53,614 bases of DNA. It comes from a virus. Positions 6,005 to 36,282 of this stretch are shown here, piece after piece. Where the stretch lies: the IMG/VR virus record IMGVR_UViG_3300024346_000015, positions 1 to 53,614 of that record; one strand, given 5' to 3'. Under the pieces are notes generated by a model. That model ran no database searches, was not told where the DNA came from, and worked only from the letters and a program-made list of their open reading frames with translations. Position 1 is the first letter of the stretch. The number at the start of each line of letters is the position of its first letter. The position numbers and the translations under genes were made by a program.

Positions 6005-6009
6005 CGCAT

Positions 6010-6035: not shown

Positions 6036-6077
6036 CTAAAATGTGGTGAGTTAACCTCACTCTTATTTTTATACTTC

Positions 6078-7418: not shown

Positions 7419-7429
7419 TTTAATAATCC

Positions 7430-8458
7430 TTACTTAATAGTTTTTTTGATAGCGTTAACGTATGCGTCCATTGAACTTGAGATCTCTACGGTTTGATCCG
7501 CGTCTTCTACAATCTGTTCAACTTCTGCGTTATCAACAGGTTCTTTAGCGAAGTGTGACTCGATTACGATACCTACTTTAGACGCGAATGTTTCTTCGTC
7601 AAAGTCGATTCCTTCGATAAGTCCTTTTAACTTCTCTACTTGGGTGTCAGCAAGACCACGAGATGCTTCAGCGATGATTGCATCACGCTTCAATACTTCG
7701 AGTTCTTCGCTTAACTTAATTGCGTCACCAGTAGTTGAGTTAAGTTTTTCTTCCAACTCAGTTACTTGTTCTGCAAGTTCGTCAACTAGGTCAACTTTTG
7801 CTTCAGGGACATCGATGTAAGATTCTACGAATAGATCTTTCATTTTACCCATGAATGATTCAGCGATTTCAGTACGGAGACCGTTCTGTACCGCAACCTT
7901 GTTTTCTTCCATCCAAGATTCAACAACGTAATTCATGTAAGAATCTACTTTCTCAACAAGATCAGCTTTAACAGCAGATACTTCTTCAGACAGTTCTTCT
8001 TTGTACTGCTCTTCTAAACGATCAACTTCTTCGCTTAACTTAGAACGGACAGCAGCTTCAAAAATTACAGCAGTCTTCTCTTTAAACTCTTCTGAAAGAG
8101 TGGCTTCAGATTCTACCAACGCATCCAACTCTGAAGTTGTATCGATAGATTCTGCAACAGACTCTGCCACCTTACCTTTGCCGAACATAGTGTCGTATGC
8201 AGCTTGCAGTTCACCTTTCTTCATTTTAGAAGCGGTGACATACATTGCATTCAACAGACCGGCTTTGGTCTTAGGTGCGGGTGCCTGATTTGTTGCGCCA
8301 GCAGCTTTATCGACAGATGCGAGAGATTCTGGTTCCGTTACCGGAGTATCATCTTTGGCTTCTACGACTTCTGCTTGTGCTTCTTCGAGAGTTTCCTCCA
8401 CAATGTCGTTAATTTCTTCATCGTGAAGTTCAACTTCGACTTTACTTTCTTCAGTCAT
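7430..8458 (-). CDS. gp22: Prohead core scaffold protein gp22
   Basis: LSEEFKEK...IFEAAV, WMEENKVAV..GLRTEIAESF; acidic coiled coil; synteny. Confidence 0.96.
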   Translation of the reverse strand: MTEESKVEVELHDEEINDIVEETLEEAQAEVVEAKDDTPVTEPESLASVDKAAGATNQAPAPKTKAGLLNAMYVTASKMKKGELQAAYDTMFGKGKVAESVAESIDTTSELDALVESEATLSEEFKEKTAVIFEAAVRSKLSEEVDRLEEQYKEELSEEVSAVKADLVEKVDSYMNYVVESWMEENKVAVQNGLRTEIAESFMGKMKDLFVESYIDVPEAKVDLVDELAEQVTELEEKLNSTTGDAIKLSEELEVLKRDAIIAEASRGLADTQVEKLKGLIEGIDFDEETFASKVGIVIESHFAKEPVDNAEVEQIVEDADQTVEISSSMDAYVNAIKKTIK

Positions 8459-8468
8459 AATTGACTCC

Positions 8469-9128
8469 TTACATATTAGATTTGATTAACGAGAGGAAAT
8501 TCTTAAACTCCCGAATCTGCACTTCGGATTGAAATGCTTTCGGTGCGGTTTTAATTTCTGTCTCCATATCTTCAATAATCTGGGGTTCCAAAATGCCGTT
8601 ATTCCAGACCCAATCCACACCTTCCATAATTCCATTGACAAAAGCGTCAGGTGCTGAGGGGTCTTGTACGATATCTACCGTACTAAGAATAAAGTCGTCT
8701 TTGACATACATTGCGCCATTTCTTTGTTCCAGACTTCCCATTCCACGAGTTGACACACCCAATTGTACACCACCATCAAGGAGACCTTTAACAATCTTAC
8801 CCATTGGAGTATCCAATATTTGTGCCTTTCCTACCACATCATTACCTTCGAAACGAAGATCAGTGATGAGGTGAGAAACTTTATCCAAGTTAACCGTAGG
8901 GCCTTCAGGGTGATTCAATTCACCTACCGCACGTTTCTTGCTAACTTGGGTTTCAACGTATGCATTTACTGCCTTCTCCATAATTGGTTTAGGGTAAATA
9001 CGTCCGTTTCTATTCTTTGATTCTGTTTGAATGAAGATTCCTTCAATGACGTAATTCTTCTCGCCATTTTCTTTCTTCTCTACGATACACTCAAGATCGT
9101 TTTCTTTAAATTCGCTAATTAACTTCAT
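8469..9128 (-). CDS. gp21: Prohead protease gp21
   Basis: NRNGRIYP, GELNHP, LGVSTRGMGSL, DIVQDPSAPDAFV. Confidence 0.98.
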   Translation of the reverse strand: MKLISEFKENDLECIVEKKENGEKNYVIEGIFIQTESKNRNGRIYPKPIMEKAVNAYVETQVSKKRAVGELNHPEGPTVNLDKVSHLITDLRFEGNDVVGKAQILDTPMGKIVKGLLDGGVQLGVSTRGMGSLEQRNGAMYVKDDFILSTVDIVQDPSAPDAFVNGIMEGVDWVWNNGILEPQIIEDMETEIKTAPKAFQSEVQIREFKNFLSLIKSNM

Positions 9129-9349
9129 TAGAGTTTACCACCTAGTGCTTTGACAGTTGAGACTAAAGTCTTCATTGCTTCCGACTGCGTCTTGAATACA
9201 TCTAACTTGTCACCGTCTATATACACGCAGTAACCTTTTGGTTCTTTTACAATAACTACCGGAACCTTTACAGACCCTTTAGTCTTCGCAGAGTACACGG
9301 TTTCACCCTTATACTTCTTTGCTTCGCGGATCTGTTTAAATGTTTTCAC
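9128..9349 (-). CDS. Small basic prohead core protein (gp68 position)
   Basis: MKTFKQIRE start; synteny between the gp67-like gene and g21; own late promoter. Confidence 0.65.
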   Translation of the reverse strand: MKTFKQIREAKKYKGETVYSAKTKGSVKVPVVIVKEPKGYCVYIDGDKLDVFKTQSEAMKTLVSTVKALGGKL

Positions 9350-9375
9350 TATAAGTTTTTCCCTGTTTGTACATT

Positions 9376-9383
9376 TATTTATA
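9376..9383 (-). promoter_or_regulatory. T4-type late promoter
   Basis: TATAAATA upstream of the gp68-like/g21/g22/g23 unit. Confidence 0.85.
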
Positions 9384-9412
9384 CAAAAAAAGTTTTTTAG
9401 ATCGAATTATTA

Positions 9413-9721
9413 TTAAGAAAGTTCGTCTTCTTCTTCTTCTTCGACTTCGTCTTCTTCCGACTCATCTTCATCTTCGAGGTCTAATTCTAACTCTTCTATC
9501 TCTTCTTCTTCTGGTGCATCATTAAAGATAGTATCGGCTACCGCAACCTTCTCGGCATCCATAGCATCTTGCATCTTACTACCCAACATATCGTTGAATA
9601 GATCTCCAGCATTATTAAAGTTAGATGCCTGAATCGCATCGACAAACTGATTTAGGTTCAGTTCCATTTGCGTAGGTTCTTGTACTTCAGTTGTTTCTGT
9701 ATCACTCATGATTTTCTCCAA
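9413..9721 (-). CDS. gp67: Prohead core protein gp67-like
   Basis: Small protein with very acidic C-terminus directly after the portal gene; true start may be the internal Met (MSDTE). Confidence 0.75.
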   Translation of the reverse strand: MEKIMSDTETTEVQEPTQMELNLNQFVDAIQASNFNNAGDLFNDMLGSKMQDAMDAEKVAVADTIFNDAPEEEEIEELELDLEDEDESEEDEVEEEEEDELS

Positions 9722-11224
9722 TTAAAATTCGTCTTCATTTCCGGTCTCTGCATTAGATTCAATTGCGATCTGTTTCAAGATAGTCTCAACTTCATCTTCT
9801 TGCATTTGTAACACGTTCTTCCATACCCACTCTTTAGAGAAGTACTCACCAACATACTGAGATACTTGATCCATAGTCTGGAGACGTTCTCTAAGTACTT
9901 CTGCTTCCTTCAGTTCGGTGAAGTGGTTGTCACGTATATAGTCAACCGTGATATCATTCTTCCACTCTTCCCAATCCAACTCAGTGATAATACCTTTAAG
10001 TATTAACTGTTTACGAAGGATATTTAGGAACAACGTTGCGAAGCGTTTTCGCAGACGATCAATAAACTTCTGGAACTTAACTTCGTCTCTGTTGATCTCT
10101 GTTGAACGACCTAAAGAGAACTGAGCCTCTTGTTCTAAACGCGACAGAGGAACATTCAAAGATCTATATAGTCGTTTCTGAAAGTATACAATATCATCGA
10201 TCTGTCCAAGATTCTCACCGCCAGGCAGTGTAGAGATCTCAGTACCACGACCACCTTCTTTACGTGGTAACCAGAAGTCTTCCAACATAGACATATGTTT
10301 ACGGTCATCTTTCAATTGACCCGTGTTCGCATCGTATACCAACTTGTTACGGTAACGAGCCATGATGTCTTTCATGTGTTTCTCTGCCTTCTGTGGAGGC
10401 AAGTTACCCACATCTATGTAAAAGATTCTACGTTCAGGCGCACGTGCGAGACGGTAGATTACCAATGAATCTTCCATCATACGCAATTGGTTAATTGGTT
10501 TGATTGCCTTGTGTAGGAATGATACTACACGTTTTCTAGAAGGATCCAACAGACCAGACGTAACATAGGATACTGAATCCGGACTTAACTTAACACCAGA
10601 CTGCGTACCAGATTTCTCTTGATAGATGTAAAACTCTTCGGTCTTCTCTACAATCTTTGCGTTAGTGGATGGGTCTTTCTTATACTTTACCTCACGAACC
10701 TTACGTACCTTTGCAGCATCGATGGGACGGATCTCTTGGATACCAGCCTTCATATTAGATTCGTTTACCACCAAGTGGTGATACAAACGACCATCTACAT
10801 ACCACGAACGGAACATGTCGTGACCTAACTCATTGAAGTTCAACATCGCGCAGATGCCGTCAAACTCTTCAATGATGTTCTTCTTAATCTTATCGGATGC
10901 TTTTACCTTATCGAGATCCAGACCAACCGGAGATTCCATTTCTGAACCAGAGATAGACTCGTTGATAATATCTTCGATAGCAGCATCGACTTCAGGATGT
11001 TGTGCAACACCCCTATACTTTTGAATTTGTTGTGTGTTGTCCTTAGAGTCCGCACCGTCCATATCAATATATGCACCGAAGTGTGAACCACTGGCAGTAA
11101 CGTACCCAGCACCATCGGGATCAGCCGTTGGTACAATAGAAGGTAGTTTTTCTTTGTCCTTTTCTTTGGTCGCTCTCTTTATTTCAAAACCAAAGAGTTT
11201 TAGACCGTTATTGTCTTCTGCCAT
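9722..11224 (-). CDS. gp20: Portal protein gp20
   Basis: FRSWYVDGR, RAPERRIFYIDVGNLP, EDFWLPRKEGGRGTEISTLPGG. Confidence 0.99.
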   Translation of the reverse strand: MAEDNNGLKLFGFEIKRATKEKDKEKLPSIVPTADPDGAGYVTASGSHFGAYIDMDGADSKDNTQQIQKYRGVAQHPEVDAAIEDIINESISGSEMESPVGLDLDKVKASDKIKKNIIEEFDGICAMLNFNELGHDMFRSWYVDGRLYHHLVVNESNMKAGIQEIRPIDAAKVRKVREVKYKKDPSTNAKIVEKTEEFYIYQEKSGTQSGVKLSPDSVSYVTSGLLDPSRKRVVSFLHKAIKPINQLRMMEDSLVIYRLARAPERRIFYIDVGNLPPQKAEKHMKDIMARYRNKLVYDANTGQLKDDRKHMSMLEDFWLPRKEGGRGTEISTLPGGENLGQIDDIVYFQKRLYRSLNVPLSRLEQEAQFSLGRSTEINRDEVKFQKFIDRLRKRFATLFLNILRKQLILKGIITELDWEEWKNDITVDYIRDNHFTELKEAEVLRERLQTMDQVSQYVGEYFSKEWVWKNVLQMQEDEVETILKQIAIESNAETGNEDEF

Positions 11225-21624: not shown

Positions 21625-22338
21625 TTATTCCGACATTATTTCATCTATTATTTCTTCACGGAATAGTTGTGCAACAGGTGAGGTATCGAAACAAAAAGAA
21701 ACCGTTTGTCGCCAACAGTTAGTCTCAGCAGCATGATAGAAAATCTTATCTTCTTCTCTATAACTACCGAAGTATCCTGCTTTCAATTGCCAACCCGGCA
21801 CGTCTTGCATGACCACGATTTCACCTTTCTCTATATCCCAATACTTGAAACAACCATCACCTGTCTCACTGTATGTGAAAATCATATTCCATGCAGCTGC
21901 ATTCGCATTGTTATGCCAAGCGATAAATCCGTCTTTAGGATACGCGGCAGATAATGCATTGTTACGACAACCCATGAAATTAATCATCTTGGTATTCGTT
22001 TCGGTCAACAACTTCATGAACTCAGAACGGAATCTCGCTTCGTCCGAAGATTCCGCATGGTCGTTCTTAAAGAATTTATGCAGTTTAGTATTAACTCGAA
22101 ACTCGTATCCGTACATTGCATCTGGAAAACCTTCGTGTCTTTCACCCTGTGCAATAATTTCCTTGAGGTATTCTTCACCAGTGAACCAATCTTTTTTGTC
22201 TGACGCGTCTGAACACGTCAAGTGCATATACTTTTCGAACCCATCAAGTGCGCCAGCCTTCCTATAGTCATCAAGAATTTCAATTAACTCTGGGTTGTTA
22301 ATAGGGATGGTTTGCATCCTGTAGTCTACTTCACTCAT
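21625..22338 (-). CDS. Putative 2OG-Fe(II) oxygenase/cupin-fold protein, paralogue of 1292..1939
   Basis: YPKDGFIAWHNNANA...FTYSETGDG...GW..K.GYF.SY.E...FYHAA...R shared with the 215-aa protein. Confidence 0.6.
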   Translation of the reverse strand: MSEVDYRMQTIPINNPELIEILDDYRKAGALDGFEKYMHLTCSDASDKKDWFTGEEYLKEIIAQGERHEGFPDAMYGYEFRVNTKLHKFFKNDHAESSDEARFRSEFMKLLTETNTKMINFMGCRNNALSAAYPKDGFIAWHNNANAAAWNMIFTYSETGDGCFKYWDIEKGEIVVMQDVPGWQLKAGYFGSYREEDKIFYHAAETNCWRQTVSFCFDTSPVAQLFREEIIDEIMSE

Positions 22339-23060
22339 AAAATATGTCCGTCCTTATCCAGACCACACGAGTAATGTCTCAATACAACTTCACCATCTGG
22401 TCTCGTTTGTTGCCAATTAAATGCGTTATAGTAATTCCAACGCAAATCATCTTTAAATATTCCTACCTTCAGATCCTTGTACTTCGGATCTTTCTCAGTT
22501 AACCACCAAAGAGAGAACTGATCCCAAGACTTGAGACTGTCTGCATATCCTTCTGGCCACCAAGAGTCATTCATCTGTCTACGAGTCAGATCCCACCAGT
22601 CATCCATGAACTCACGGACAATAGGTTTAGTCATATCATACAGACAGACACCCCCACAAAGAGTAAACTTCGCATTCCCTTCGGGAGTACTAAAGTCTCG
22701 TTCAGCATAAATGTAATCACGATCATCGGTCAATTCAGAGAACATGACATCGTAGTCACCTAACTCATCGTAGACCTTTGCGATGTCTTCGTGTTCACAT
22801 TCCATATCAGCATCAATATACATTGTTATATCATAAGGAGATTTCGCCATGCCCCATAGTTTGGCACGGTAGTGGTTGTCACAATGTATGATTTTATCTG
22901 CTAAGCTTCTTGCTCGTCCATCGATCATCCACGGTTCGCATACCAATGTGATATTAGCATCTTCATGATAATCACGAATAGAATCGATTAAGTTAATCGC
23001 ATAAACATAAAAGTTTGGTTTGTTCGATGCGACAATTACAATGCCTTTACTCTTTTCCAT
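22335..23060 (-). CDS. GT-A fold glycosyltransferase (nucleotide-diphospho-sugar transferase)
   Basis: GIVIVA..Y..A..L..SIR, SPYDITMYIDAD (DxD), GGVCLY, WDQFSL, RWNY, late His (LRHYS). Confidence 0.85.
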   Translation of the reverse strand: MEKSKGIVIVASNKPNFYVYAINLIDSIRDYHEDANITLVCEPWMIDGRARSLADKIIHCDNHYRAKLWGMAKSPYDITMYIDADMECEHEDIAKVYDELGDYDVMFSELTDDRDYIYAERDFSTPEGNAKFTLCGGVCLYDMTKPIVREFMDDWWDLTRRQMNDSWWPEGYADSLKSWDQFSLWWLTEKDPKYKDLKVGIFKDDLRWNYYNAFNWQQTRPDGEVVLRHYSCGLDKDGHIL

Positions 23061-23517
23061 CGACCGCTGCCTCTTCCAGAGCTATCGTATCTTGGAGAAT
23101 CATAATCGCGTACATGTCAACTTCGATTCTACTCTTTGCACGTCTAAGTTTCGCTTTCAATTTACGGTTCTTCGAAGATTTTACTTCTTCTACTTCAAAC
23201 GCTTCCATCTTATAGTTGAAGAGATCTTCTAGTTTACGTGCCTTAGCGTGTTCAACGTCACGTTGTTGTTTCTCTTCTTTCTCTTGTTTCTTGCGAACAT
23301 GACGATCGGTCGTGTTGTCATCAACTAATTTTTCAGTTAATACTTCAATGACTTCTTCGTAATCCTCATTGGGATTACCTTCCTTATCAAGTTTATTCAG
23401 ACGCATGACCTGTCTAGTTACTCGACCAATATCGTCTTCTAATTCTAAAATACAGTTTAGTTCGTTCTTATCTTCAGTTTCCCAAAACGCATTGTCTAAC
23501 CATTTTCTACTGCTCAT
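23047..23517 (-). CDS. Hypothetical protein (possible fibre chaperone)
   Basis: 156-aa ORF with GGAG RBS and charged coiled coil, directly downstream of the giant fibre gene. Confidence 0.7.
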   Translation of the reverse strand: MSSRKWLDNAFWETEDKNELNCILELEDDIGRVTRQVMRLNKLDKEGNPNEDYEEVIEVLTEKLVDDNTTDRHVRKKQEKEEKQQRDVEHAKARKLEDLFNYKMEAFEVEEVKSSKNRKLKAKLRRAKSRIEVDMYAIMILQDTIALEEAAVDGKE

Positions 23518-23559: not shown

Positions 23560-26500
23560 TTATGCAGTTCGTAAGTACAGTGTATAAGTCTCTACAGTGG
23601 ATGTACTTTGTCCAATTGTTGTTCCTGAGTAATTTCCTACAAAAGTTCTACCATAATCACCTGTGTAATCTGCGGTATAGTTTCCAAGGTAAGGTACGAC
23701 ATAATCGCCCGCATAGTTCCCTGTGAACGGAGTTATAGACTCTCTAGTATATGAAGATGTACGGAGTCTATTAAAATTACTGTTTCTCAATCTAGTATAT
23801 ATGGCCACAAAACCACGAGTATATACCGATGATCTATTTCTGGTATATGCGGAAACTCTGGTACGAGAATAATGAGCAACATAGTCTGCGGTATAGTTTC
23901 CGGTGAAATCACCTGCGTATGTACCAACACTTACTCTCAAGAAGTTTCCGACATACTCTCTTGCATAGTTGCCAGTATAGTTACCCGCAAAACTTGAGTC
24001 ACGAACACGTGTAAACCCGCCTGCGTAAGTTCCGGTCGCACCTACGAAGTTTGCGTAAGTACGGGATCTAGCATATGAAGAAGGTCTTGTTCTACTATAT
24101 GCAGATACTCTTGTGACGGTGAAGGCTGTTGTGTAATGAGATGTGTAATTACCTGTGTATTCACCAACAAAGGTTCTAGTGAAATCACCTGTATAGTTAC
24201 CACCAAACACTCTGGTGAAATTGCCTGTGTAGTTACCACCAAATAATCTAGTGAAGTTTCCTACATAGTTACCACCGAAGTTTCTACTATAGGCACCAGT
24301 GTATTCTCCAACAAAACCACGAGTATAGTTGCCAATGTAATCACCAGCAAAACTACGAGAATAACTAGATACTCTAGTCCTAACCGATGTTCTCGTATAG
24401 TTACTTCCGCGAACTCGCGAGTAAACACTAGTACGTGTACGAGTATAGGCTGACGGTCTATTTTCATTACGCAGTCTGGTTGAAGTACGAGCATAACTAC
24501 TCGATCGGACTCTAGTAAATAAAGACGTGTAATTTTCGATTCTGTTTCGTGCATAACTACTGGATCTGGTTCGTGCGTAACTACTGGATCTAGGCGTTAT
24601 ACGAGTTCTGGCGTATGCTGATGAACGAGTAACTGAACTGACACGTGTAGATATTCTTGTGTAGTTACCGACATAATCACCAGTATAATCTCCCGCAAAT
24701 GTTCTACCGTAGTTACCAATGAAGTCCCCGACAAATGCGCGAGAATAGTTACCAGTATAATCTCCCGCGAATGCACGAGCATAGTTACCAGTATAATCTC
24801 CACCGAAGACTCGACTATAGTTTCCTACAAAGGTTCTACCGTAGTTACCAATAAACGTTCTCTGATAATTACCAGTGTAATTACCGGCATAATCACCAAC
24901 GAAGCCACGGTTGTAGTTACCAACAAAACCACGCATATAGTTACCTACGTAGTTTCGACTGTAGGTACCAGTATAATCACCAACAAAACCACGTACATAA
25001 TTGCCAGTATAATTGAATACAGAATTTCGGGTTCTAGTATAAACCAGAGTTGACCCTCTAGCGCGAGTATACACACTTACTCGACTTCTGGTAGAGTTTG
25101 TAATTCTGGTTCGAGTATATGCACTATAACGTGTTCTAGTTGATGTACGAGTATAGTTACTATTCCTAGCACGAGACGATACACGAGTAGAGGTACGAAG
25201 ATAGTTACTGTTCCTAGTACGAGTTGATGTACGAACATAATTACTATTTCTAGTACGAGCTGAGATTCTCGTGGATGTACGAAGATAAGAACTATTCCTA
25301 GTGCGAGTCGATGTACGAGTATAATTACTATTTCTAGCACGAGATGATACACGAGTAGATGTACGGAGATAAGAACTAATTCTATTTCTAGTCGATGTAC
25401 GGAGGTAAGAACTAATTCTAGTGCGAGTCGATGTACGAGTAGATGTACGGAGATAAGAACTGACTCTACTATAATCGGTAATACGAGTTCGCTGATAAGA
25501 ACTTATTCTAGTACGAGTTGATGTACGAGTATAAGAACTGACTCTATTTCTTGCATACGCACCCGAATATGCACTGACTCTATTTCTAGTCGATGTACGA
25601 GTAGATGTACGGGTATAGTTTCTAGCACTAGTACGGGTAGATGTACGTGTATATGCACTACTTCTAGTACGAGTTGATGTACGAGTATATATGCTACTTC
25701 TGTTACGTGCGGACACTCTGGTCGAATAACGAAGATAGTTTCTTGTGCTAGTACGGGTAGATGTACGGAGATAACCAACAGTACGGTTAAACGATGTGTT
25801 CCGACTATAGTTACCTGTATAGTACGCAGTACCGCCTATATAATACAAGAAACGAGTGTAGTAGATTAGATTTGGATAGTAATATCTCGCAAAGGCTTGG
25901 GTTCGAGCGAATGATCCAGCCCTTGTGGATATACGTGTGTAAGCCGCGTTGCCAATATAATATGATGTTCTACTGTAATTACCAACGAAGTTACCGGCAA
26001 ATCCTCGAGCATAGTTACCAGTGTAATTACCAGTGTAATTACCGGCAAATAATCTACTAAAGTTACCGCCATAGTTACCGGCAAAGTTTCTACTAAAGTT
26101 ACCAGTGAAGTTACCGGCAAAGTTTCTGCCGTAGTTACCGATAAAATCGCCAGCGTAGTTTGCTACGAAAGTACGGCTGTAGGCACCAGTGTAGTTTCCT
26201 ACGTAAGTACGGTTGAAGTTACCAGTGAAGTTACCCGCGAAACCACGGTTATAGTTACCAACGAAGTTACCCGTAAATACTAATGTTCGGTTATAGTTAC
26301 CAGTGAAGTTACCAGCATAGTCGCCAACAAATCCTCGGTTGAAGTTACCCGTATAATTACCCGCGAAACCACGGTTGAAGTTACCAGTATAGTTACCAGT
26401 ATAGTCACCAACAAATCCTCGACCGAAGTTACCTAGATAGTTACCAGCAAATGCACGAGCGTAGTTACCAGTATAGTTACCAGTATAGTCACCAACGAAA

Positions 26501-29500
26501 CCTCTGAGGTAGTCGCCAGTATAGTTACCGCCAAATGCCCGAGCGTAGTTACCAGTGTAGTTACCCGTATAGTCGCCTACAAATCCTCGACCGTAGTTAC
26601 CCAGATAGTTACCGGAAAATTCACGAGCGTAGTTACCCAGAAAGTTACCGACATAATCACCAGCAAATGCACGAGTATAGTTACCTGTATAGGTTACTGA
26701 TCGACTATAGTTGCCGGTATAGGCCACTGTTCGTGAGGAGGTACGAGTATATGCACTGTTTCTAGTACGTGCATACGCACCACTATAACTACTAGGTCTA
26801 GTTCTAGCATATGCGGAAAGACGAAGACGAGTGTAAGCAGAGTTACGTGTACGTGCGGATGTACGAGTAGAGACTCTAGTATATGCACTGTTTCTATTTC
26901 TAGTATAAGAAGATGCTCTAGATCGAGTATATGCACTACTTCTATTACGTGTAGAGACTCTAGTGTATGCACTACTTCTATCACGTGTTGAGACTCTAGT
27001 ATATGAACTATTTCGAGGTGTTATACGAGTTCTAGCGTATGTACTAACTCGACCACGAGTACTTACTCTTTGTGACGTTCGGGTATAGTTGCCCGTATAA
27101 TCACCAGTGTAATATGCTATGAAGTTTCTGGTATAGTTACCAGCGAAATCTCCTACGTAGTTCCGACTATAGTTACCAATAAAGTTTCTGGAGTAGTTCC
27201 CTTCGAATGAACGTGTGAAGTCTCCGGTATAATCTCCACCGAAGTTCCGCGAGTAGTTACCGACATAGTTACCAGTATAATCCGCAACGTAGTTCCGGCT
27301 ATAATTACCAATATAGTTACGACTGTACTCTCCAGCGAAATTGCGACTATAGTTACCAACGTACTCACCAACGAAATTTCTGTTGTACGTCTCTACCCTA
27401 GTACGAGTTGATGTTCTAGCATATGCTGAAACTCTTGTTCTACTATAAACACCACTATATGATGAAATTCTGGTTCGGGTAAAGTCTGTTGTGTAGGCAC
27501 TGGTACGATCTCTAGTGAAGACAGTAGTATATGCGCTAGTGCGATTTCTGGTAGATACACGAGTGTAGTTACTGACTCGATTTAGAATAGATACTCTAGT
27601 CGAAGTTCTAGCAAAGTCACCAGTATAGTTACCGATGAACTCTCGTGAATAGTTTCCTACATAGTTTCGACTGTAATTGCCGACATAATTTGGTGCATAG
27701 TTACCGATGAAACTACTATCACGAGTTCGTGTGTAATCAGCTGAGAATGTTGAAAAACGTGACGCTAAGTAGTTACCCGTATAATTAGAGTTTCTCGGTG
27801 TTACACGATTTCTAAGGAAATTAGATGTTCTAGTTCTAGAATAGTTACCGACATAGTCTCGGCTATAGTTACCAACAAATCCACGACTATAATTACTGAC
27901 ACGTGTTCGAGAATAATCACCAGTGTAATCTGCGGTGTAATTACCTGTAAAGTCTCTATTGTAGTTACCAGTATAACTAGAGTTACGGATCCGTTGACTG
28001 GTACGAGTAAAGTTAGAATTTCTGGTACGTGCGAAGTCCCTTGTACTTACACTGGTGTAGTTGGATGCACGAGTTCTAGTATAGACGACATCACTCGTAT
28101 CTTTACGTGTATCGGTTGCCGTTCCTCTTACTGTCCATGTTCCAGATGCTGTCGGAGTACCTTGAGCGGAACTACGTAATTCGTATGATCCAATGTTACC
28201 TAAAGTTGCTCTACGGTTAGCTGCGAGTTGACCAAAGGTGAAACCCATTTGATAGTCAGTCATCTCACGGAAACCTTGGAAGGTTCCTGAATCATACCCA
28301 TCTTCAGCAAGAGTAGATGTCCAACCAACTATAGACTCTTCGTCCCCAGCAGTATCATTTACTCGTAACAAAACAGGTTTGTCGGATTCGAATTTCCACA
28401 GGTTGGCACCACCCGCAAACATTGCGACCGTGGATGCACCGTCCTGATCTCCGGATGCACCGCTTGCACCTGAACCATTGTTACCATTACGGGCAATTAA
28501 GTTGCTAGCATTCATATGGTGGTAATCTAGTACTACCCACTTGTCGTCTGTTGAATCATAATAAGAGACATGAACATTAGTGTCATCATCTCTCGCAACA
28601 AGACAATAATCCTTGAGTGAGTCACCCCAAGAGTAGGTGTTCGATAAGAACTCTTCAGGTAAACCTTGAGTTCCGTCAGAACCAGCACCGTCACCTACTT
28701 TAACTACAAAGACATTATGTGTGGTATCTGTAACGAGGTTGCCAGTGGCAGTTGACGGTACAGTGTTTACAGCTGTTCTCTCGTAAGAATTATACGAACG
28801 ATATACCACTTGTTTCATCGGTGGTATTTTGTACTTATCACCTTGTGCTTCTTTTACCGTAACGACAATATCTTTATTAGATGTAATAAACACGTACTGG
28901 TTATCGATTCCAGTAAATGTTTCGGATGTCACTGTGTTCGCACTTAACGATACGGTTCTAGTCGCAGTACCATTGATACCGTTTGTTTCATTTACAAAGA
29001 ACTCTACGGTACACGCTTCTTTTGCAAATAAGTAATATGTACTATCTCCGTATCTAGTCGATACGTTACCAAACTCTTGACCCCTTAGTGACCAAGGAAC
29101 CAAGACGTGTCCGCCATTATTTTGATGTAACTCAATAGGTCTGTCACCATAGTAACTTCGACCAGCAGTCACATTGAATGAACCTCTTTGTGGTTCAGTA
29201 CCAGTGATCGCTAGTGTACTGGTGGTACCGTTAGTCTGTTTCTCTGTAATGACAGTACTTGGATATATCGCAGAATATCTTACGCCAGTAGCACTTACCA
29301 TAACGATGGTTTCGTGGAGACCGTGATTTCTAACGTCAGTGGCATCAGTGTCATATGACTCTGTGTTACCCATCCAACTAAAGATCGCACGATTATTCGC
29401 ATCTGTGGTTGGGGGTGACGCTAAGTCGGTCTTCACATATAGGTTATAGTTGGTAGCCGCGAGAGTGTTGATTGAATCAGAGAACACTGATGATTGGTGT

Positions 29501-30072
29501 ACCGCCCAAGTATCACCATCACTAGGTGCAGATGTACCCAAGTAATATGTGCCGGGCCAAGTGTTAGTCGCAATGTAACTATTGATTCTATCCGAAAACG
29601 ATTCTGTCTCTGCAAATGTAGGTAGACGCATACCCTTTAGATCTGCATCAAATATCACGGGCCATTTGAATCCTGATTCAGGAAGACCGTTAGATACCAT
29701 TTTGTTATTTGCAGTTGAGATACTAGTGAACAATGGGTTCCTAGTAAATAGATCTGTTGTAGTTGTGGTTACAGATATGCTTGATGACGGGTGAGTACCG
29801 TCTGGTTGACCATATCGGGTATCAATATAGTTACCTATACTAGAACGATTGCCACTTACCGCAAGTGATCCGAATGCTCCGTTACCTATGTAACCAGTAT
29901 AGTTGTCATTTGCGTTTGGAGGAGAATACGACAGTATTTCCTTACCGGCAAGGTACGCTAATATCTGTTCCTGTGTCGGAGAATATTGCGCCAAATCATT
30001 CGCATCAAAGGCAGCGTTGCTGCCGCCTTGATACGATTCTTTGATTCTAATCGGTATATCAGAAAATGCCAT
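23560..30072 (-). CDS. Giant 2170-aa fibre-like virion protein with mirror-complementary repeats
   Basis: N-terminal globular part shared with 30128..33358; about 1490 aa of alternating RTRxSxY and YTGNY blocks; own late promoter. Confidence 0.85.
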   Translation of the reverse strand: MAFSDIPIRIKESYQGGSNAAFDANDLAQYSPTQEQILAYLAGKEILSYSPPNANDNYTGYIGNGAFGSLAVSGNRSSIGNYIDTRYGQPDGTHPSSSISVTTTTTDLFTRNPLFTSISTANNKMVSNGLPESGFKWPVIFDADLKGMRLPTFAETESFSDRINSYIATNTWPGTYYLGTSAPSDGDTWAVHQSSVFSDSINTLAATNYNLYVKTDLASPPTTDANNRAIFSWMGNTESYDTDATDVRNHGLHETIVMVSATGVRYSAIYPSTVITEKQTNGTTSTLAITGTEPQRGSFNVTAGRSYYGDRPIELHQNNGGHVLVPWSLRGQEFGNVSTRYGDSTYYLFAKEACTVEFFVNETNGINGTATRTVSLSANTVTSETFTGIDNQYVFITSNKDIVVTVKEAQGDKYKIPPMKQVVYRSYNSYERTAVNTVPSTATGNLVTDTTHNVFVVKVGDGAGSDGTQGLPEEFLSNTYSWGDSLKDYCLVARDDDTNVHVSYYDSTDDKWVVLDYHHMNASNLIARNGNNGSGASGASGDQDGASTVAMFAGGANLWKFESDKPVLLRVNDTAGDEESIVGWTSTLAEDGYDSGTFQGFREMTDYQMGFTFGQLAANRRATLGNIGSYELRSSAQGTPTASGTWTVRGTATDTRKDTSDVVYTRTRASNYTSVSTRDFARTRNSNFTRTSQRIRNSSYTGNYNRDFTGNYTADYTGDYSRTRVSNYSRGFVGNYSRDYVGNYSRTRTSNFLRNRVTPRNSNYTGNYLASRFSTFSADYTRTRDSSFIGNYAPNYVGNYSRNYVGNYSREFIGNYTGDFARTSTRVSILNRVSNYTRVSTRNRTSAYTTVFTRDRTSAYTTDFTRTRISSYSGVYSRTRVSAYARTSTRTRVETYNRNFVGEYVGNYSRNFAGEYSRNYIGNYSRNYVADYTGNYVGNYSRNFGGDYTGDFTRSFEGNYSRNFIGNYSRNYVGDFAGNYTRNFIAYYTGDYTGNYTRTSQRVSTRGRVSTYARTRITPRNSSYTRVSTRDRSSAYTRVSTRNRSSAYTRSRASSYTRNRNSAYTRVSTRTSARTRNSAYTRLRLSAYARTRPSSYSGAYARTRNSAYTRTSSRTVAYTGNYSRSVTYTGNYTRAFAGDYVGNFLGNYAREFSGNYLGNYGRGFVGDYTGNYTGNYARAFGGNYTGDYLRGFVGDYTGNYTGNYARAFAGNYLGNFGRGFVGDYTGNYTGNFNRGFAGNYTGNFNRGFVGDYAGNFTGNYNRTLVFTGNFVGNYNRGFAGNFTGNFNRTYVGNYTGAYSRTFVANYAGDFIGNYGRNFAGNFTGNFSRNFAGNYGGNFSRLFAGNYTGNYTGNYARGFAGNFVGNYSRTSYYIGNAAYTRISTRAGSFARTQAFARYYYPNLIYYTRFLYYIGGTAYYTGNYSRNTSFNRTVGYLRTSTRTSTRNYLRYSTRVSARNRSSIYTRTSTRTRSSAYTRTSTRTSARNYTRTSTRTSTRNRVSAYSGAYARNRVSSYTRTSTRTRISSYQRTRITDYSRVSSYLRTSTRTSTRTRISSYLRTSTRNRISSYLRTSTRVSSRARNSNYTRTSTRTRNSSYLRTSTRISARTRNSNYVRTSTRTRNSNYLRTSTRVSSRARNSNYTRTSTRTRYSAYTRTRITNSTRSRVSVYTRARGSTLVYTRTRNSVFNYTGNYVRGFVGDYTGTYSRNYVGNYMRGFVGNYNRGFVGDYAGNYTGNYQRTFIGNYGRTFVGNYSRVFGGDYTGNYARAFAGDYTGNYSRAFVGDFIGNYGRTFAGDYTGDYVGNYTRISTRVSSVTRSSAYARTRITPRSSSYARTRSSSYARNRIENYTSLFTRVRSSSYARTSTRLRNENRPSAYTRTRTSVYSRVRGSNYTRTSVRTRVSSYSRSFAGDYIGNYTRGFVGEYTGAYSRNFGGNYVGNFTRLFGGNYTGNFTRVFGGNYTGDFTRTFVGEYTGNYTSHYTTAFTVTRVSAYSRTRPSSYARSRTYANFVGATGTYAGGFTRVRDSSFAGNYTGNYAREYVGNFLRVSVGTYAGDFTGNYTADYVAHYSRTRVSAYTRNRSSVYTRGFVAIYTRLRNSNFNRLRTSSYTRESITPFTGNYAGDYVVPYLGNYTADYTGDYGRTFVGNYSGTTIGQSTSTVETYTLYLRTA
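23623..28083 (-). repeat. Coding low-complexity repeat tract (4-aa periodic; GNY-type and RTS-type blocks)
   Basis: Recurrent tagttacc and gatgtacgagt type words on the + strand. Confidence 0.95.
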
Positions 30073-30127: not shown

Positions 30128-33100
30128 TTAGGATTTTCTAACATATAGCGTATAAGTATCAATGACACTGGAAGTTGTTGAAACTGTTATCCCTGTGTAA
30201 TTACCCAAGAAAGATTGTGTTGAGTTAGTACCGAAAGCTCTGGTATAAGTTCCGGTGTAGTTACCCACATAGGTTTCTGAACATACTCTAGTATACTCAC
30301 CTATATATGTAGACACTCTATCTCGTGTGTAAGTAGATATTCTGTTTCTGGTAAACGGATTAAGAAGGTTCGTATAGTTACCGGCATAGTTACCAACGAA
30401 GTTTCTAGTATAATCACCAGTATAATTACCAGTGTAATCCGCAGTATAATCACCAGCATACGCAACCGTTCTGGTTCTAGTACTAGTTCGAAGGAAGTTA
30501 CCTACATAATCTTCGGTGTGATCAGTTACAAAATCTCCGACATAACTTGAAGCCCGTGTTCTAGCGAACGCGGAAGAACGTGTTCTCTCGTATGAAGATG
30601 TTCTTGGAGTAACACGAGTCCTTTGAAAGGTCGAGGTTCTTGATCGAGTACTGACTCGACTAGAAGGGGTCACACGTGTTCGTTGAAAATCTCTGGTATA
30701 ATCACCAGCGAAAGATCTAGAGTATCCGGATACGCGATTACGATTGTAATTACCAACGAAGTCTCTTGCGTATGAGGATATTCTGTTACCTGTAAAATCT
30801 CTTGAACTAGTACGAGTTGAAACGTAAACCTCTAAACGAGTAAATACATTGGCGTAGTTGGTATAGTTACCAACGAACCCTCTGCTATAACTGGATACAC
30901 GTTGTCTAGTGAACACGCTAGTACTATCTCTGGTACTGGTTCTGGTTGACGTTCGAGTAAATGCACTAAGTCGTTCTCTAGTGAATATCTGGTCACGTTC
31001 CCTAACGAACGCCCTAGTCGAAGAACGAGTCGAGGTTCTTTGGAAGTCTCTAGTACTGCTTCTAGTAAACGCATTTACATAGTTGACGTAATTACCAGTG
31101 AAGTTAACGTTGCCAGCGAAGTCCAATATAGCTGCATATTCACCAGCGAACATTCGTACAAAATTTCTACTAAAGTTACCGAGGAAACTGGTGGTCGTCA
31201 TGTTGTCGCCCAGAGCTTCATCACCAGTTGCACCAGAATATGTAATTGTACGAGCAGATGCTCTAGGATATGAGGGTATTCTTGCGAATTGTCCACCAGC
31301 GCCAGTATACACTGTCATTCTACCATAAGCGGGGCCAATATAGTTTGGCCCGACAAACGCTACGGGATAGTAAGTAGTTTGATAGAAACCACTTTGATAT
31401 CTCGAAAACGCTTGGTACCTAGTAAATACATTTTGACCAGCAGGAACGGTTATCCCGACTTCGACAGGCGCACCGCCACCATGAGGGCCTTGAACGGCAG
31501 TTACGTATGAAGTGAGACCTGTTGCTATCGCTCTTACTCTAACATATTGTTGACTGTATATAGAGTAACGACCTCTGGAGAAAGTCGATGACCGTGAAAA
31601 GGAACTTGCCTTGGCGCGAGTTCTGGTATATGCACGGGTAAAGTCGCCAATATATGCGTTGACGTAGTTAACGTAATTACCAGTGTAATTACCAGTATAT
31701 TGATTAACGTAGTTAGTATAGTTACCTGTGAAGTCACCTGTATAGTTACCAACAAAAACATTAACGTAGTTAGTATAGTTACCAGTATAGTTACCGGCAT
31801 AATCGCCAACAAAGTTACCAGTATAAGAGTCGGTTATTGTTCGTTGATAGTTACTAGTACGTGTTCTATTGAAGGTAGACGTGCGTTCCTTAGTAAAGTT
31901 ACCAGCGTAGTTACCCGCATAATAAACAGTATTAGTATTGGTGAAATCCCGCGAGTAAGTTGATTCGCGAATCGTGGTGTAGTTACCAACAAAAGTTCTA
32001 GAGTATGATGAATTGCGACTACGAGTAAAGGCTGATATTCTGTTACCTAAGAAGTTACCCGTGTAATTACCAGTGTAATTACCAACAAATGCGTTGATGT
32101 AGTTGGTATAGTTACCAACGAAGTTTCCTACGAAATTTCTGGAATAGTTACCCACATAACTTGACGCTCGGTTTCTATTGAATGACGAGTTTCGAGTAAC
32201 GGTTCGGTTACCTGTAAAGGTAGACGTTCGAGTAGTTGTATAGTTACCAGTATAGTTACCGGCATAATCGCCAGTGTAGTTACCAATAAAATTAGAATTT
32301 CTGAGTCGTGTCGATTCTCTGGTATAATTAGAATTACGTGTACGAAGGTAATTACCTACGTAGTTTCTAGTAAAATTCCCAATGAATCCTCGAGCGTAGT
32401 TACCAGTAAACGCATTAACAAAGTTGGTGTACTCACCAGTATAGTTACCTGTATAGAGTCCAATACTATCGTTAACATATTCTCCACTATAAGTCGATAC
32501 TCGACCAGTATAGTTGTTAAACGCATATGAAGATACGCGAGTACGAGTGTACTGTTTTGGAGTTAGATCGTTTCTAGTGTCGGTTGCACTACCTACAGAC
32601 TTCCAAACTCCGGTCGCAGTTGGAGTTCCTTGTGATGAACTACGTAATTCGTATGATCCAATGTTACCCGCGATTGCACGTCTAGTTTTAGCCCACTGAC
32701 CTAAAGTATACGTAAGGTTAGATTCACTAATCATTTGAATACCGTCATACCCATCACTATCTTGAATATGCGCTACGTCAATCGCTGTCGGTGAAGTCTG
32801 AGTGGTTCTCTGCCATATGTAATATGGGGTCTCTGAGTTATCCGTTCGAGTATCAGAGAACGCTTCGAACCTACTGGTATAATCAGAACCAGGCGAGTTT
32901 GCGCCTAGTTTGTAACACCCAAGATAGTCATTGGTTGCGATGATACTGTTCAGTCTATCGACAAGGACATTCATATCCGAATCAGCAAATTGGTGAATAC
33001 CTTCCTTGCCATTTTTGGTAGAATATGATACGGGTCGTTTGAATTTAGTATTACCGCCCGCCTCTACACCAGAGGTAGTAGCGGTACCGCCCAGTTGATA

Positions 33101-33358
33101 CAAATCTGACGTGACGGTTATGATATTAGTTCCGTCTACCGGATGGTCACCCACAGGTTCAAGATACTTTGTATCAATATGAGAACCCACTGATATTGCG
33201 TTAGACGTGGATGTATTTCTCAGATCGCCTACAGACGTACCGGCAGAGTTCTTCATCTGGATACCCGCTCGGTACGCTAGGTAATTTTCTTCTGAAGAAG
33301 TTATTTGTTGCAAATCACCATTTGCAGCCTTTAACTTCAGTACTAGATCTGTGGACAT
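30128..33358 (-). CDS. 1076-aa paralogous fibre-like protein with mirror-complementary repeats and a central tip domain
   Basis: Shares E..LAY.AG, DT.Y..P.G.HP, GNIGSYELRSS.QGTPTA.G.W and C-terminal TYTLY.R with the 2170-aa protein. Confidence 0.85.
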   Translation of the reverse strand: MSTDLVLKLKAANGDLQQITSSEENYLAYRAGIQMKNSAGTSVGDLRNTSTSNAISVGSHIDTKYLEPVGDHPVDGTNIITVTSDLYQLGGTATTSGVEAGGNTKFKRPVSYSTKNGKEGIHQFADSDMNVLVDRLNSIIATNDYLGCYKLGANSPGSDYTSRFEAFSDTRTDNSETPYYIWQRTTQTSPTAIDVAHIQDSDGYDGIQMISESNLTYTLGQWAKTRRAIAGNIGSYELRSSSQGTPTATGVWKSVGSATDTRNDLTPKQYTRTRVSSYAFNNYTGRVSTYSGEYVNDSIGLYTGNYTGEYTNFVNAFTGNYARGFIGNFTRNYVGNYLRTRNSNYTRESTRLRNSNFIGNYTGDYAGNYTGNYTTTRTSTFTGNRTVTRNSSFNRNRASSYVGNYSRNFVGNFVGNYTNYINAFVGNYTGNYTGNFLGNRISAFTRSRNSSYSRTFVGNYTTIRESTYSRDFTNTNTVYYAGNYAGNFTKERTSTFNRTRTSNYQRTITDSYTGNFVGDYAGNYTGNYTNYVNVFVGNYTGDFTGNYTNYVNQYTGNYTGNYVNYVNAYIGDFTRAYTRTRAKASSFSRSSTFSRGRYSIYSQQYVRVRAIATGLTSYVTAVQGPHGGGAPVEVGITVPAGQNVFTRYQAFSRYQSGFYQTTYYPVAFVGPNYIGPAYGRMTVYTGAGGQFARIPSYPRASARTITYSGATGDEALGDNMTTTSFLGNFSRNFVRMFAGEYAAILDFAGNVNFTGNYVNYVNAFTRSSTRDFQRTSTRSSTRAFVRERDQIFTRERLSAFTRTSTRTSTRDSTSVFTRQRVSSYSRGFVGNYTNYANVFTRLEVYVSTRTSSRDFTGNRISSYARDFVGNYNRNRVSGYSRSFAGDYTRDFQRTRVTPSSRVSTRSRTSTFQRTRVTPRTSSYERTRSSAFARTRASSYVGDFVTDHTEDYVGNFLRTSTRTRTVAYAGDYTADYTGNYTGDYTRNFVGNYAGNYTNLLNPFTRNRISTYTRDRVSTYIGEYTRVCSETYVGNYTGTYTRAFGTNSTQSFLGNYTGITVSTTSSVIDTYTLYVRKS

Positions 33359-33370: not shown

Positions 33371-36052
33371 TTAATTATTCAGTAGAGTTCCGCTCGCATC
33401 GTAAACATCTATAATTCTATCTGCTACACGATTTAAAGCGGTCACTATATCTTGGTTATGTGAATCGTAGAAACTAGATAAACTTGTTCTCGTACCAAGA
33501 TCGCTATCTACTTCATTGATCGCACCGACAAGATCGGTTGCAGTAGTATTTAGTGTTGTGCCAGGCGTGATAGTTCCAGCCGTTGTAACATTCGCACCAC
33601 TGAATGTCAATACAGTGGTATCACCAGATCTTACTATCAAGTTACCCGAAGTATTCTGGAATCTACCGAACTGAGTTCCACCGTCTTTAAGTAGTACGTC
33701 ACCACCGTCTGCATCTAGTACTATGTCACCAGCAACATCCATAGTCAGACTACCACCAAAGACTTTCATCTCAGTACCAGCGCTTGGTGCATGATTGTAA
33801 TCGAACTCGACTCTTGTCGTATCAGCAGAGTCTCTGAAGAATACCTGACCATCATCTACATCAAAGTAAAGATTCTTCTGAGTGTTTGTGATAAGACTTC
33901 TGTTATGTACTGTCATGTAGGCGACATCAGCAGTACTGGCACCTAGATCAAAGGATATACCATTTGAGTCCGCAGTCTTGAATACAATGTCTTCACCACG
34001 AGAGTTTAATACGATATCACCGCTTGCATCAAGGTTGATACCACCAGTAGTATTCTTTATCGTGTTGCTGTTGATATTGAAGTTTGCGATAGTACCACTA
34101 TCACCATCTAGGTTGTCCGCAAATACTGTTCCGTCAAACCATGCGTGTCTCCATTGAAGAGTGGACGATCCAAGATTGTTTGCGTTAGTTGTTTTTGGTA
34201 AAATATTAGTATCAACTTTACCGTTTATAGAAATGTCATCTGCAGCCGCATTACCCAGATCAACATGACCATTCAATGTAGTATTACCATCTACATTCAG
34301 TGTTCCATCAACATCAAGGTTGTCCTCAATGTTTACGTCTGAGTTAAATACTACATCTGAATCGTTGAATGATGCAGCAAGGATTCCGTTTGAGTAGATA
34401 CCTAATTGGTTATCACCGATGTGTTTGAATCGACCAAACTCTGTTCCGTTGTCTTTAAGAATAACGTCATCTGCAGCTGCATCTAGGATGATATCTCCAG
34501 TTGCATCTACAGTAAAGTTCCCAGCAACGTCTAGTTCTAGACCGCCTTGTGAGTACAACTGTCGAACTAAGGTAGCGTCTCCCGCCATACCCATTTGAGT
34601 CTTGACGAATTGCGTACCTTGTCTAGAGAAGATAAGGTCACTGTCGCCAACATCTAATGTAAGGTCATTCTGAACATCTAATGTTAAACTACCTACTACA
34701 TCGATTTCTTGATCAGCAGCGAAGTTGAAAGTAAACTTGTTTACTCCATTGTCTTTCATGACGATGTCGGCACCATTCGCATCTAGGACAATATCGGTTT
34801 CCGCATCTAGTGTGATGCTACCAGTTGTCTTTACGAGAGTGTTACCAGTAGTATCAATTTCTAGGTCACCGCCAGTCACAACATCGAGTGTTCCTCGTGT
34901 ATCGATGTCCATGTTTCCAGTCGCACCGATATGGTATGTACCAACTGCACTGTCCGATACATTACCTGTAACCGTTTCGGTTCGGTTACCAGTTGTTGCG
35001 ATTGTGGTTGTTGTGCCTAGAGTATATTCTTGACGTGTTGTACCACCATCTTTTAATCTTATATTGTCTCCACCGGCATCAATGATGATATCGTTAGCTA
35101 CATCAAGTGTCAGATTATTTGGAGTAGTGACAGTAAGGTTTCCATCATTAGCAAGATTGATCTGTGCAGAATCAGCACCCGCTCCATTTCTGAAGACTAG
35201 GTCATTACCATCCGCATCTAGGATGATATCTCCAACCACATCAAGTGTATAGGAGCCTGGAGCAGTAACCGTATATCCAGCACCATTCGCAAGAGTATGA
35301 GTTACTTGGTCTGCGCCAGTACCATTCTTAAAGATAATGTCGTTACCGTCTGCGTCCAGAGTAATATCTCCGGATACATCTAGATTAAGATTTCCAGCAA
35401 CGTCTAGTTCTAAACCACCCTGTTGATATAATTGTCTTGTTAAAGTATCATCACCTTCCATACCCATCTGAGTCTTGACAAAGACGGTACCTTGTCTACG
35501 GAAGAAGATGTCACTGTCACCGGCATCAAGGATTACGTCTGCGCCAGCGTCCAGTATGATATCATTAGATGCGTTAAGGTCAATATGTCCACCTGTCGCA
35601 TTTACTACTAACGCACCCAGTGTGTCTATATTGTGATTGCCAGTTGTTGTTATTGATCTAATACCACCAACAGAATCAGTAAAGTTCCCTTCAGTATTAA
35701 CAATGTAGGTTCCGGAATAGTCACCCTCAAAATTAACACTGGTCAGTTCGATATCCGCAACCGCATCAACAAGAAAGTCTCGACCAGCATCGATATCAAT
35801 GTCCGTACCACTACTTTGATTAGTACTAATCTTTAGTCGTGTCTGAGTCTCCCCCGCTTGTCCGTTGGGATATAAGATCTCACCAGCAGATGCGTCAAAT
35901 GTGGCTTCGATTTCATTAATTACTGTGACAAGATCGCTGTCTTGATAGGTATTCAGTTGTAATGGGTCGCCTACGTTATTAGATAATATATTGAACTTGT
36001 CAACAAATATCTTAAACGATTCTTGCATTCTTACTATTGGTTTTCGTGACAT
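33371..36052 (-). CDS. Fibre/baseplate-associated protein with repeated DI.LDA.G.DI.F units (probable trimeric beta structure)
   Basis: 893 aa, many LDA repeats, DLV.AINE motif at both ends, NLGSSTLQWR motif. Confidence 0.75.
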   Translation of the reverse strand: MSRKPIVRMQESFKIFVDKFNILSNNVGDPLQLNTYQDSDLVTVINEIEATFDASAGEILYPNGQAGETQTRLKISTNQSSGTDIDIDAGRDFLVDAVADIELTSVNFEGDYSGTYIVNTEGNFTDSVGGIRSITTTGNHNIDTLGALVVNATGGHIDLNASNDIILDAGADVILDAGDSDIFFRRQGTVFVKTQMGMEGDDTLTRQLYQQGGLELDVAGNLNLDVSGDITLDADGNDIIFKNGTGADQVTHTLANGAGYTVTAPGSYTLDVVGDIILDADGNDLVFRNGAGADSAQINLANDGNLTVTTPNNLTLDVANDIIIDAGGDNIRLKDGGTTRQEYTLGTTTTIATTGNRTETVTGNVSDSAVGTYHIGATGNMDIDTRGTLDVVTGGDLEIDTTGNTLVKTTGSITLDAETDIVLDANGADIVMKDNGVNKFTFNFAADQEIDVVGSLTLDVQNDLTLDVGDSDLIFSRQGTQFVKTQMGMAGDATLVRQLYSQGGLELDVAGNFTVDATGDIILDAAADDVILKDNGTEFGRFKHIGDNQLGIYSNGILAASFNDSDVVFNSDVNIEDNLDVDGTLNVDGNTTLNGHVDLGNAAADDISINGKVDTNILPKTTNANNLGSSTLQWRHAWFDGTVFADNLDGDSGTIANFNINSNTIKNTTGGINLDASGDIVLNSRGEDIVFKTADSNGISFDLGASTADVAYMTVHNRSLITNTQKNLYFDVDDGQVFFRDSADTTRVEFDYNHAPSAGTEMKVFGGSLTMDVAGDIVLDADGGDVLLKDGGTQFGRFQNTSGNLIVRSGDTTVLTFSGANVTTAGTITPGTTLNTTATDLVGAINEVDSDLGTRTSLSSFYDSHNQDIVTALNRVADRIIDVYDASGTLLNN

Positions 36053-36282
36053 TATAGTTTCTCTAGTAGTTGGGAAAGCATACTTTTCATGTCTGAGATA
36101 TCACTCTCTAGACCCTCTACCTTTGCCTTCAATTCCTGTTCTTCTTTTCTCTGCAATCTTCGTATACGTTTCCGTTCACGCGATTCCTGAATCTTATTAC
36201 TATTTATATTATTAATCGCCCCAGTTTCTGGGTCACGGACTAAATCCGCGTGACCCTCCACTGGAATAAAGTTAGTCTGCAA
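36052..36282 (-). CDS. Conserved small hypothetical protein
   Basis: VEGH..LVRD..TGAI.N plus coiled coil, typical downstream of the DUF4815 gene in marine T4-likes. Confidence 0.75.
   Translation of the reverse strand: MQTNFIPVEGHADLVRDPETGAINNINSNKIQESRERKRIRRLQRKEEQELKAKVEGLESDISDMKSMLSQLLEKL

Follow-up and report, generated by a model that had tools for sequence, protein, structure and literature searches.

A putative single-chain fold-back fibre with mirror-complementary repeat arms in an uncultured marine T4-like myophage

The protein P0001 (1076 residues) is encoded by an open reading frame at positions 30128-33358, minus strand, stop codon counted, of the IMG/VR virus record IMGVR_UViG_3300024346_000015; the window analysed here is the whole stretch of 53,614 nucleotides, positions 1 to 53,614 of that record. 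P0001 is read as a single-chain fold-back virion fibre, encoded in the host-recognition cluster of a marine T4-like myophage that has not been cultured, a reading to which a probability of about 0.68 is assigned. The first ~250 residues would form a beta-prism-like base, from which the chain would exit as a long beta-strand (residues 252-278), run outward through ~343 residues of period-4 repeats, turn in a unique Tyr/Gly/Pro-rich segment of ~105-125 residues, and return alongside the outgoing arm, in antiparallel orientation, over ~342 residues. A conserved strand (residues 1046-1074) would then re-enter the base, where both chain ends would be clamped. The thin stalk formed in this way, ~100-115 nm long, would hold a hypervariable turn far from the baseplate for host contact, with the fibre presumably attached to the baseplate and the receptor presumably bound by the tip. 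The fold-back reading is stronger for the family to which P0001 belongs than for P0001 alone, and the evidence is weaker for P0001 than for its long paralogue, P0002.

Six features follow one another along P0001, all on the minus strand. The N-terminal base (residues 1-251; 32606-33358) is conserved across the family and modelled with high confidence, and its fold matches suggest an MVB12-associated beta-prism (MABP)-like domain. The base leads into an outgoing stem strand with a conserved GxW...YTRTR motif (residues 252-278; 32525-32605), placed by the AlphaFold2 model, and then into an N arm of alternating period-4 R and G blocks that contains five seven-residue TN(Y/F)VNAF-type stutters (residues 279-612; 31523-32524). 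A non-repetitive Tyr/Gly/Pro-rich centre, the putative tip (residues 613-716; 31211-31522), separates the N arm from a period-4 C arm with three seven-residue stutters (residues 717-1045; 30224-31210). The last feature is the returning stem strand with the conserved C-terminus, which ends ...DTYTLYVRKS (residues 1046-1076; 30131-30223; modelled strand 1046-1074). The C-terminus reads ...SVIDTYTLYVRKS, in which the conserved family strand motif G.TI......ETYTLYVRxA is present.

Residues ~270-1058 follow a period of four, x-[G/R]-[N/D/T]-[Y/F/S], with an aromatic autocorrelation of 0.41 at lag 4, and T, S, G, Y, R and N predominate in the composition of the protein. The TNYVNAF-type unit, singled out as an extra unit type in an earlier note made from this sequence, occurs eight times, and each of these seven-residue units shifts the period-4 phase by one, with no other phase changes. 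Taken as residues 270-612 (343 residues) and 717-1058 (342 residues), the two arms carry their blocks in mirrored order, such that the C arm read backwards gives the block order of the N arm with G and R exchanged. An R block (575-607) precedes the centre and a G block (710-755) follows it, a G block (513-561) lies opposite an R block (764-823), and the first R unit (266-278) lies opposite the last G block (1031-1058), in agreement with the facing order that had been described from the sequence. The period breaks at residues ~597-725, where the earlier note had placed a non-repetitive centre (about 31210-31520, equivalent to residues 613-716), and the midpoint of the centre, residue 664, equals (270+1058)/2, halfway from the end of the base to the C-terminal strand. 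A DNA palindrome behind the mirror pattern was ruled out, as only three short imperfect inverted repeats are present within the P0001 gene; the mirror therefore exists at the protein level only.

P0002 (2170 residues; 23560-30072, minus strand) shares with P0001 its base, C-terminus, period-4 units, and aromatic-Arg facing rule. A common base domain and C-terminal strand had been proposed for the two proteins and are recovered by alignment: residues 15-194 of P0001 correspond to 26-224 of P0002 (E 2e-14), residues 202-274 correspond to 591-668 (E 2e-22), and the C-terminal 47 residues of P0001 are 45% identical to the C-terminus of P0002. P0001 is half the length of P0002, whose base has an extra ~370-residue insert relative to P0001; the seven-residue stutter unit is specific to P0001 in this comparison, and the P0001 centre comprises ~105 residues, whereas P0002 has a Tyr-rich turn of ~45 residues. 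A stretch of 32 nucleotides coding GNIGSYELRSS is identical in the P0001 (32637-32668) and P0002 (28169-28200) genes; it sits just before each stalk, its flanks contain many synonymous differences, and it is a possible gene-conversion or recombination point.

The pairing rule was learned on P0002. Mutual information between residue i and residue S-i of P0002 is maximal at S = 2800 and 2802 (0.98 versus a background of ~0.70), and the register i+j = 2802, where i and j are the numbers of facing residues, is indel-free over most of residues 790-1380 (26 of 29 windows of 24 residues). Pair scores in P0002 are +2 bits for aromatic-Arg, +1 for Gly-Arg, -2.7 for aromatic-aromatic and -2.3 for Arg-Arg, and its G-R profile is antisymmetric across arms of 747 residues (r = -0.80). 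The facing rule is far stronger in P0002 than in P0001, where, as the earlier note had anticipated, the match is looser: the register is broken ~15 times in P0001 and almost never in P0002.

An eight-class pairing matrix trained on P0002 alone was then applied to P0001 in a gapped alignment of the N arm (270-612) with the reversed C arm (717-1058). The arms score 46.5 bits in the antiparallel direction versus 0.8 bits in the parallel direction, and the antiparallel path comprises 326 pairs with i+j within 1328-1338; the reversed-arm alignment that had been suggested as a check thus recovers an antiparallel register. Against expectations of 14.4, 9.9 and 4.9, the path contains 57 aromatic-Arg, zero aromatic-aromatic and two Arg-Arg pairs, respectively, and the partners facing Arg are Tyr or Phe in 57 of 81 cases and Gly in 19. 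The seven-residue stutters are aligned opposite eight residues and so would be bulges. Shuffling of the C arm in chunks of 12, 24 and 48 residues gave z values of 4.7 (0/100 reaching the real score), 3.65 (0/100) and 2.35 (1/100), respectively. The real score was reached by none of 38 circular shifts of the C arm and by 5 of 300 permutations of its block order, and only 2 of 368 natural 342-residue decoy windows taken from family members beat the real partner of the P0001 N arm. The P0001 register is recoverable and non-random, at a level of ~0.01-0.05 for P0001 alone; its significance varies with the null, between 0/100 and 6%.

The arm-alignment tests do not separate a hairpin from antiparallel pairing between chains, as in a head-to-tail dimer or in a lattice that has bases at either end, given that by symmetry a mirror-complementary sequence is equally compatible with a hairpin and with an antiparallel homodimer. 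Structure models bear on this distinction and were produced with AlphaFold2 for P0001, with 52 aligned relatives, and for P0015, a relative of 436 residues, with 48 alignment rows. The base of P0001 is modelled with a predicted local distance difference test score (pLDDT) mostly above 90, and two long strands at residues 252-278 and 1046-1074 (pLDDT 84-97) imply an i+j of ~1326. P0015 has equivalent strands at residues 260-295 and 397-434. The stem strands of P0001 are paired within one chain in the model, with the C-terminal strand docked in its own base, and the non-repetitive centre at the midpoint suits a turn but would be left over as an unpaired bulge were the protein a dimer; inter-chain pairing is considered very improbable.

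The best fold matches of the P0001 base are four MABP-type beta-prisms (PDB 6sb1, 3tow, 2qp2 and 8b6v), with Z scores of 7.3, 7.1, 6.1 and 5.3, and the P0015 base matches the same four with Z scores of 7.1, 6.7, 5.8 and 5.2. These matches span 115-124 aligned residues and stand above the next-best matches of the two models (Z 3.4 and 2.8), but a Z score below 8 lies in the range that the fold-comparison tool rates as a possibly common arrangement. The base fold matches run to the final residue in both models, indicating that the C-terminal strand belongs to the base. A Foldseek search with P0001 returned no match in PDB or BFVD, the base profile retrieved no PDB sequence below E 0.2, and megablast of P0001 against the phage collection returned no match. 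At E <= 0.01, P0001 matched nothing in Pfam or PHROG, the MABP Pfam model and the gp37 and fibre families included.

A base-domain profile retrieved 477 clusters at 50% identity among 1.84 billion representatives. Of the best 150 members, ~129 are complete, with a common base and an ETYTLYVRxA C-terminus, and the complete members among them span 397-2282 residues. The C-terminal motif is found in ~123 of 157 listed members, T1068-R1074 (P0001 numbering) is nearly invariant in the family, and residues 1-275 of P0001 are 47-53% identical to P0005-P0008. The collections searched contain no relative that exceeds 70% identity to P0001. P0001 has the base, the C-terminal strand, and the two similar arms around a variable centre that characterise the family, and the idea that this architecture forms a family of variable length is upheld. 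Tandem pairs of unequal fibres (1129+2490 and 1083+634 residues), which are preceded by a P0003-like gene and followed by three small genes, are present in related contigs and fit the earlier proposal of two reach lengths.

Covariation between the two arms was assessed in 115-126 complete relatives, anchored on the conserved GxW and TYTLY motifs, using mutual information with average product correction. Covariation of N-side with C-side columns is maximal at an offset equivalent to i+j 1326 in P0001 and exceeds all of 200 permutations that break the link between the N and C sides, out to ~66 residues past the anchor. At the equivalent register, aromatic-Arg pairs are enriched 2.5-3-fold in the family and aromatic-aromatic pairs are depleted 5-fold (4600 pairs). 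The position of the tip was determined in the 41 relatives whose conserved ends enclose a single segment of distinct composition. The non-arm segment sits at a relative position of 0.495 +/- 0.10, with 51% of these relatives within 0.45-0.55 versus roughly 13% for a random position. The lengths of the N arm and C arm are correlated (r = 0.60, slope 0.99), so the arms of homologues are related in length, the opposite of which had been named as grounds for rejecting the architecture. The composition hidden Markov model used to find tips misses the centre of P0001 itself, because this centre is Tyr-rich.

Several observations weigh against the fold-back reading. AlphaFold2 leaves residues 279-1046 of P0001 unstructured, with a pLDDT of ~30, and models no arm pairing beyond the stem, although low confidence is expected in the arms because repeat alignments are unreliable. 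Permutation of blocks over the whole region of P0001 was not significant (z 1.29, 6/60), 23 of 368 natural decoys match or beat the real N arm against the Arg-rich C arm, and the ungapped smoothed G-minus-R antisymmetry of P0001 reaches just r = -0.47 (centre 664). Among the relatives, several have unequal arms, with tip positions of 0.29-0.35 and 0.61-0.81, and the G/R rule attains z > 2 in just 17-23% of members (mean z 0.86). Nor are we aware of a solved structure in which a two-stranded ribbon extends over ~340 residue pairs.

Some of these points would be accommodated by a conventional parallel trimer, anchored by its N-termini and with its C-termini at the distal tip, in which the G/R blocks would be mere alternating repeat flavours and the mirror coincidental. 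To our knowledge, all well-studied phage fibres are parallel trimers, the block permutations and C-arm decoys indicate that alternating blocks align easily, and the arms are absent from the AlphaFold2 model. A parallel fibre is nevertheless unlikely, given the near-zero score of the parallel alignment next to the antiparallel one and the antiparallel register tracked by the covariation. It would also have to account for a C-terminal strand whose conservation is the highest in the family and which the models of two members place within the N-terminal base, and for variability that lies in the middle and not at the C-terminus. A different alternative takes the low pLDDT over 768 residues, which have no predicted secondary structure, and the predominance of T, S, G, Y, R and N at face value: the protein would be a largely disordered, low-complexity whisker or decoration, its ends clamping a flexible loop and its blocks recording a history of repeat expansion. 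The strict period of four over hundreds of residues, with single-residue stutters only, the absence of aromatic-aromatic facing pairs where 9.9 are expected, and the family covariation at one register all speak against disorder, which is likewise considered improbable.

The G-faces-R rule is lineage-dependent and not universal, and ungapped mirror correlations across the family are weak (|r| <= 0.2), though with a one-lag peak. Like is paired with like in P0057, whose inner units are GNPxIxY and whose outer units are GTFExxF (TFE-type). In P0044, seven GVR(D/N)VNF units are followed by five GPQPQ(N/S)F units, and other facing codes thus appear.

The centre of P0001 has no homologue among 150 family representatives, in Pfam, or in a word search of 5.8 billion proteins, and comparisons between the tips of P0001 and P0008 and between those of P0005 and P0010 were not significant. 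P0005 and P0007 have bases that are 88% identical and tips that are 39% identical over 51 residues. Tips are hypervariable and change far more rapidly than bases, as this pair illustrates, which fits a surface under host-driven selection. AlphaFold2 models the P0001 centre with a pLDDT of ~35 and without secondary structure, and together with the lack of a Pfam match or homologue this leaves the globular tip domain proposed in the earlier note without backing. The same note had supposed the tips to be exchangeable; hypervariable as they are, no instance of one tip moved between different stalks was found among the sequences compared.

In the fold-back fibre, Tyr/Phe would face Arg across the arms and Gly would lie opposite Arg, Ser or an aromatic residue, with aromatic-aromatic and Arg-Arg pairs avoided. 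Were a beta-ribbon to extend along the whole arm, as is presumed, all facing pairs of one face would share a hydrogen-bonding class, and standard beta-sheet geometry would place a Tyr-Arg cross-strand ladder on one face, alternating with small Gly/Ser pairs, and Thr/Val and Asn/Asp on the opposite face. The stalk could consist of one chain, as a two-stranded ribbon, or of three, as a six-stranded needle. The arm length of about 110 nm given previously is sound as arithmetic, in that 343 pairs at ~0.33 nm would give ~113 nm, or less if the ribbon twists, but it is a calculation and not a measurement. No description of a fibre design of this fold-back kind was found.

The facing rule may be a protein analogue of nucleic-acid stem pairing, in which a simple facing code zips one chain into a stalk of almost any length and length evolves by matched insertions in both arms; this proposal is tentative and is put at slightly below even odds. 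The code would consist of aromatic opposite Arg and of Gly opposite Arg, Ser or an aromatic residue, with like never opposite like. Giant members may have several stems or side branches. A hypothetical protein of 3347 residues from Phage C48C1 (OQ984149; locus L001, 14995-25038) is a relative of P0001, with which it shares the base, C-terminus, period-4 units, and aromatic-Arg rule. Its aromatic-Arg pairing is strongest at i+j = 2666 (10.4% of pairs versus a median of 3.7%), a register that corresponds to a stem centred near residue 1333 and not to the global midpoint near residue 1800 and that hints at several stems or branches in one chain. P0010 (locus L004, 10001-13252) has a second non-repetitive insert in its C arm, at residues 900-957, and its N arm (~133 residues) fits the C arm solely if residues ~852-1003 are taken as a side hairpin that has a separate tip.

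The window covers a single structural module of a T4-like myovirus, with its genes in a consistent strand orientation. Gp5-like, gp25, gp6 and gp8-like wedge genes are followed by a giant gene for a DUF4815 (VrlC-type) protein of 2081 residues and by P0003, after which come P0001, P0002, three small open reading frames, and then the neck, terminase, sheath, portal, scaffold and major head genes. Identity in the major head protein is 69% with Phage C48C1 and ~60% with pelagimyophage HTVC008M and OM43 phage Melnitz. The stretch from VrlC to gp14 in such phages is a host recognition cluster with tail fibres (PMC7029224), and P0001 is positioned between the VrlC/DUF4815 gene and gp14.

The motif TATAAATA has 11 matches on both strands of the window versus 3.2 expected, 10 of which are on the minus strand, and several copies that were checked are found a short way before gene starts, in keeping with T4-type late promoters. 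One copy (36201-36208, minus strand) lies upstream of P0003 and P0001 and is the sole copy until that of P0002 (30110-30117, minus strand). No late-promoter motif occurs between P0003 and P0001, and P0001 is therefore probably co-transcribed with P0003. P0003 (893 residues; 33371-36052, minus strand) is a beta-helix-like fibre or baseplate protein. P0003-like proteins have conserved ends, M(A/S)RKPIV... and ...VYD(E/A)(N/S)GTLLNN, and lengths of 244, 893, 1141 and 1398 residues, and are encoded, in addition to the window, at 5777-9973 of locus L002, 6548-9973 of L003 and 9251-9985 of L004; alongside the P0001 family, they constitute a second fibre family of variable length in this cluster. Three small genes (~155, 245 and 235 residues) come after the fibre gene or genes in all of the related loci examined, at 21625-23517 of the window, 20965-22890 of L002, 15206-17065 of L004 and 25133-27013 of L001, and those of the window have no Pfam or PHROG match.

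In the abundant T4-like phages of the sea, among them relatives of SAR11 and OM43 phages, tail fibres have so far been hard to annotate (PMC7029224). If correct, the fold-back reading would provide a structural interpretation for a large unannotated family of 477 clusters, and would explain both how fibre length is set over the range of 397-2282 residues and why two fibres of different reach occur side by side. It would also describe a natural, very long, core-less beta-ribbon with a Tyr-Arg ladder and a readable pairing rule, which would be of interest for protein design and for the solubility of thin beta structures, and determinants of host specificity would best be sought in the variable centre.

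Two known systems resemble the proposed fibre. In MPEG1/perforin-2, an "extraordinary elongated beta-hairpin" projects from an MABP domain and its tip touches the target surface (PMC6753088). The bases of P0001 and P0015 match MABP prisms best, but P0001 has no sequence match to MABP and the Z scores remain below 8; the perforin-2 hairpin comprises tens of residues without a repeat code, whereas the arms of P0001 comprise hundreds. The perforin-2 hairpin is a suggestive, though unproven, structural parallel to the proposed stalk of P0001. The second system is the gp37 needle of T4, in which, as outlined in PMC9659904 after Bartual et al. 2010, the chain runs out to a receptor-binding tip and back, with antiparallel strands in the stalk. 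It resembles P0001 as a distal fibre of a T4-type phage in which both arms build the stalk, for which the evidence in P0001 is statistical and model-based only. The gp37 needle is a six-stranded trimer with roughly 70 residues per arm, compared with ~340 in P0001, and is held by His-x-His (HxH) iron sites. P0001 contains six His in total and no HxH motif, and has a Tyr/Phe-Arg facing rule in place of such sites. P0001 therefore lacks two features of the gp37 needle, the HxH sites and sequence kinship, as no Pfam or PHROG fibre family is matched; of the systems compared, the needle would nonetheless be the nearest functional analogue of P0001.

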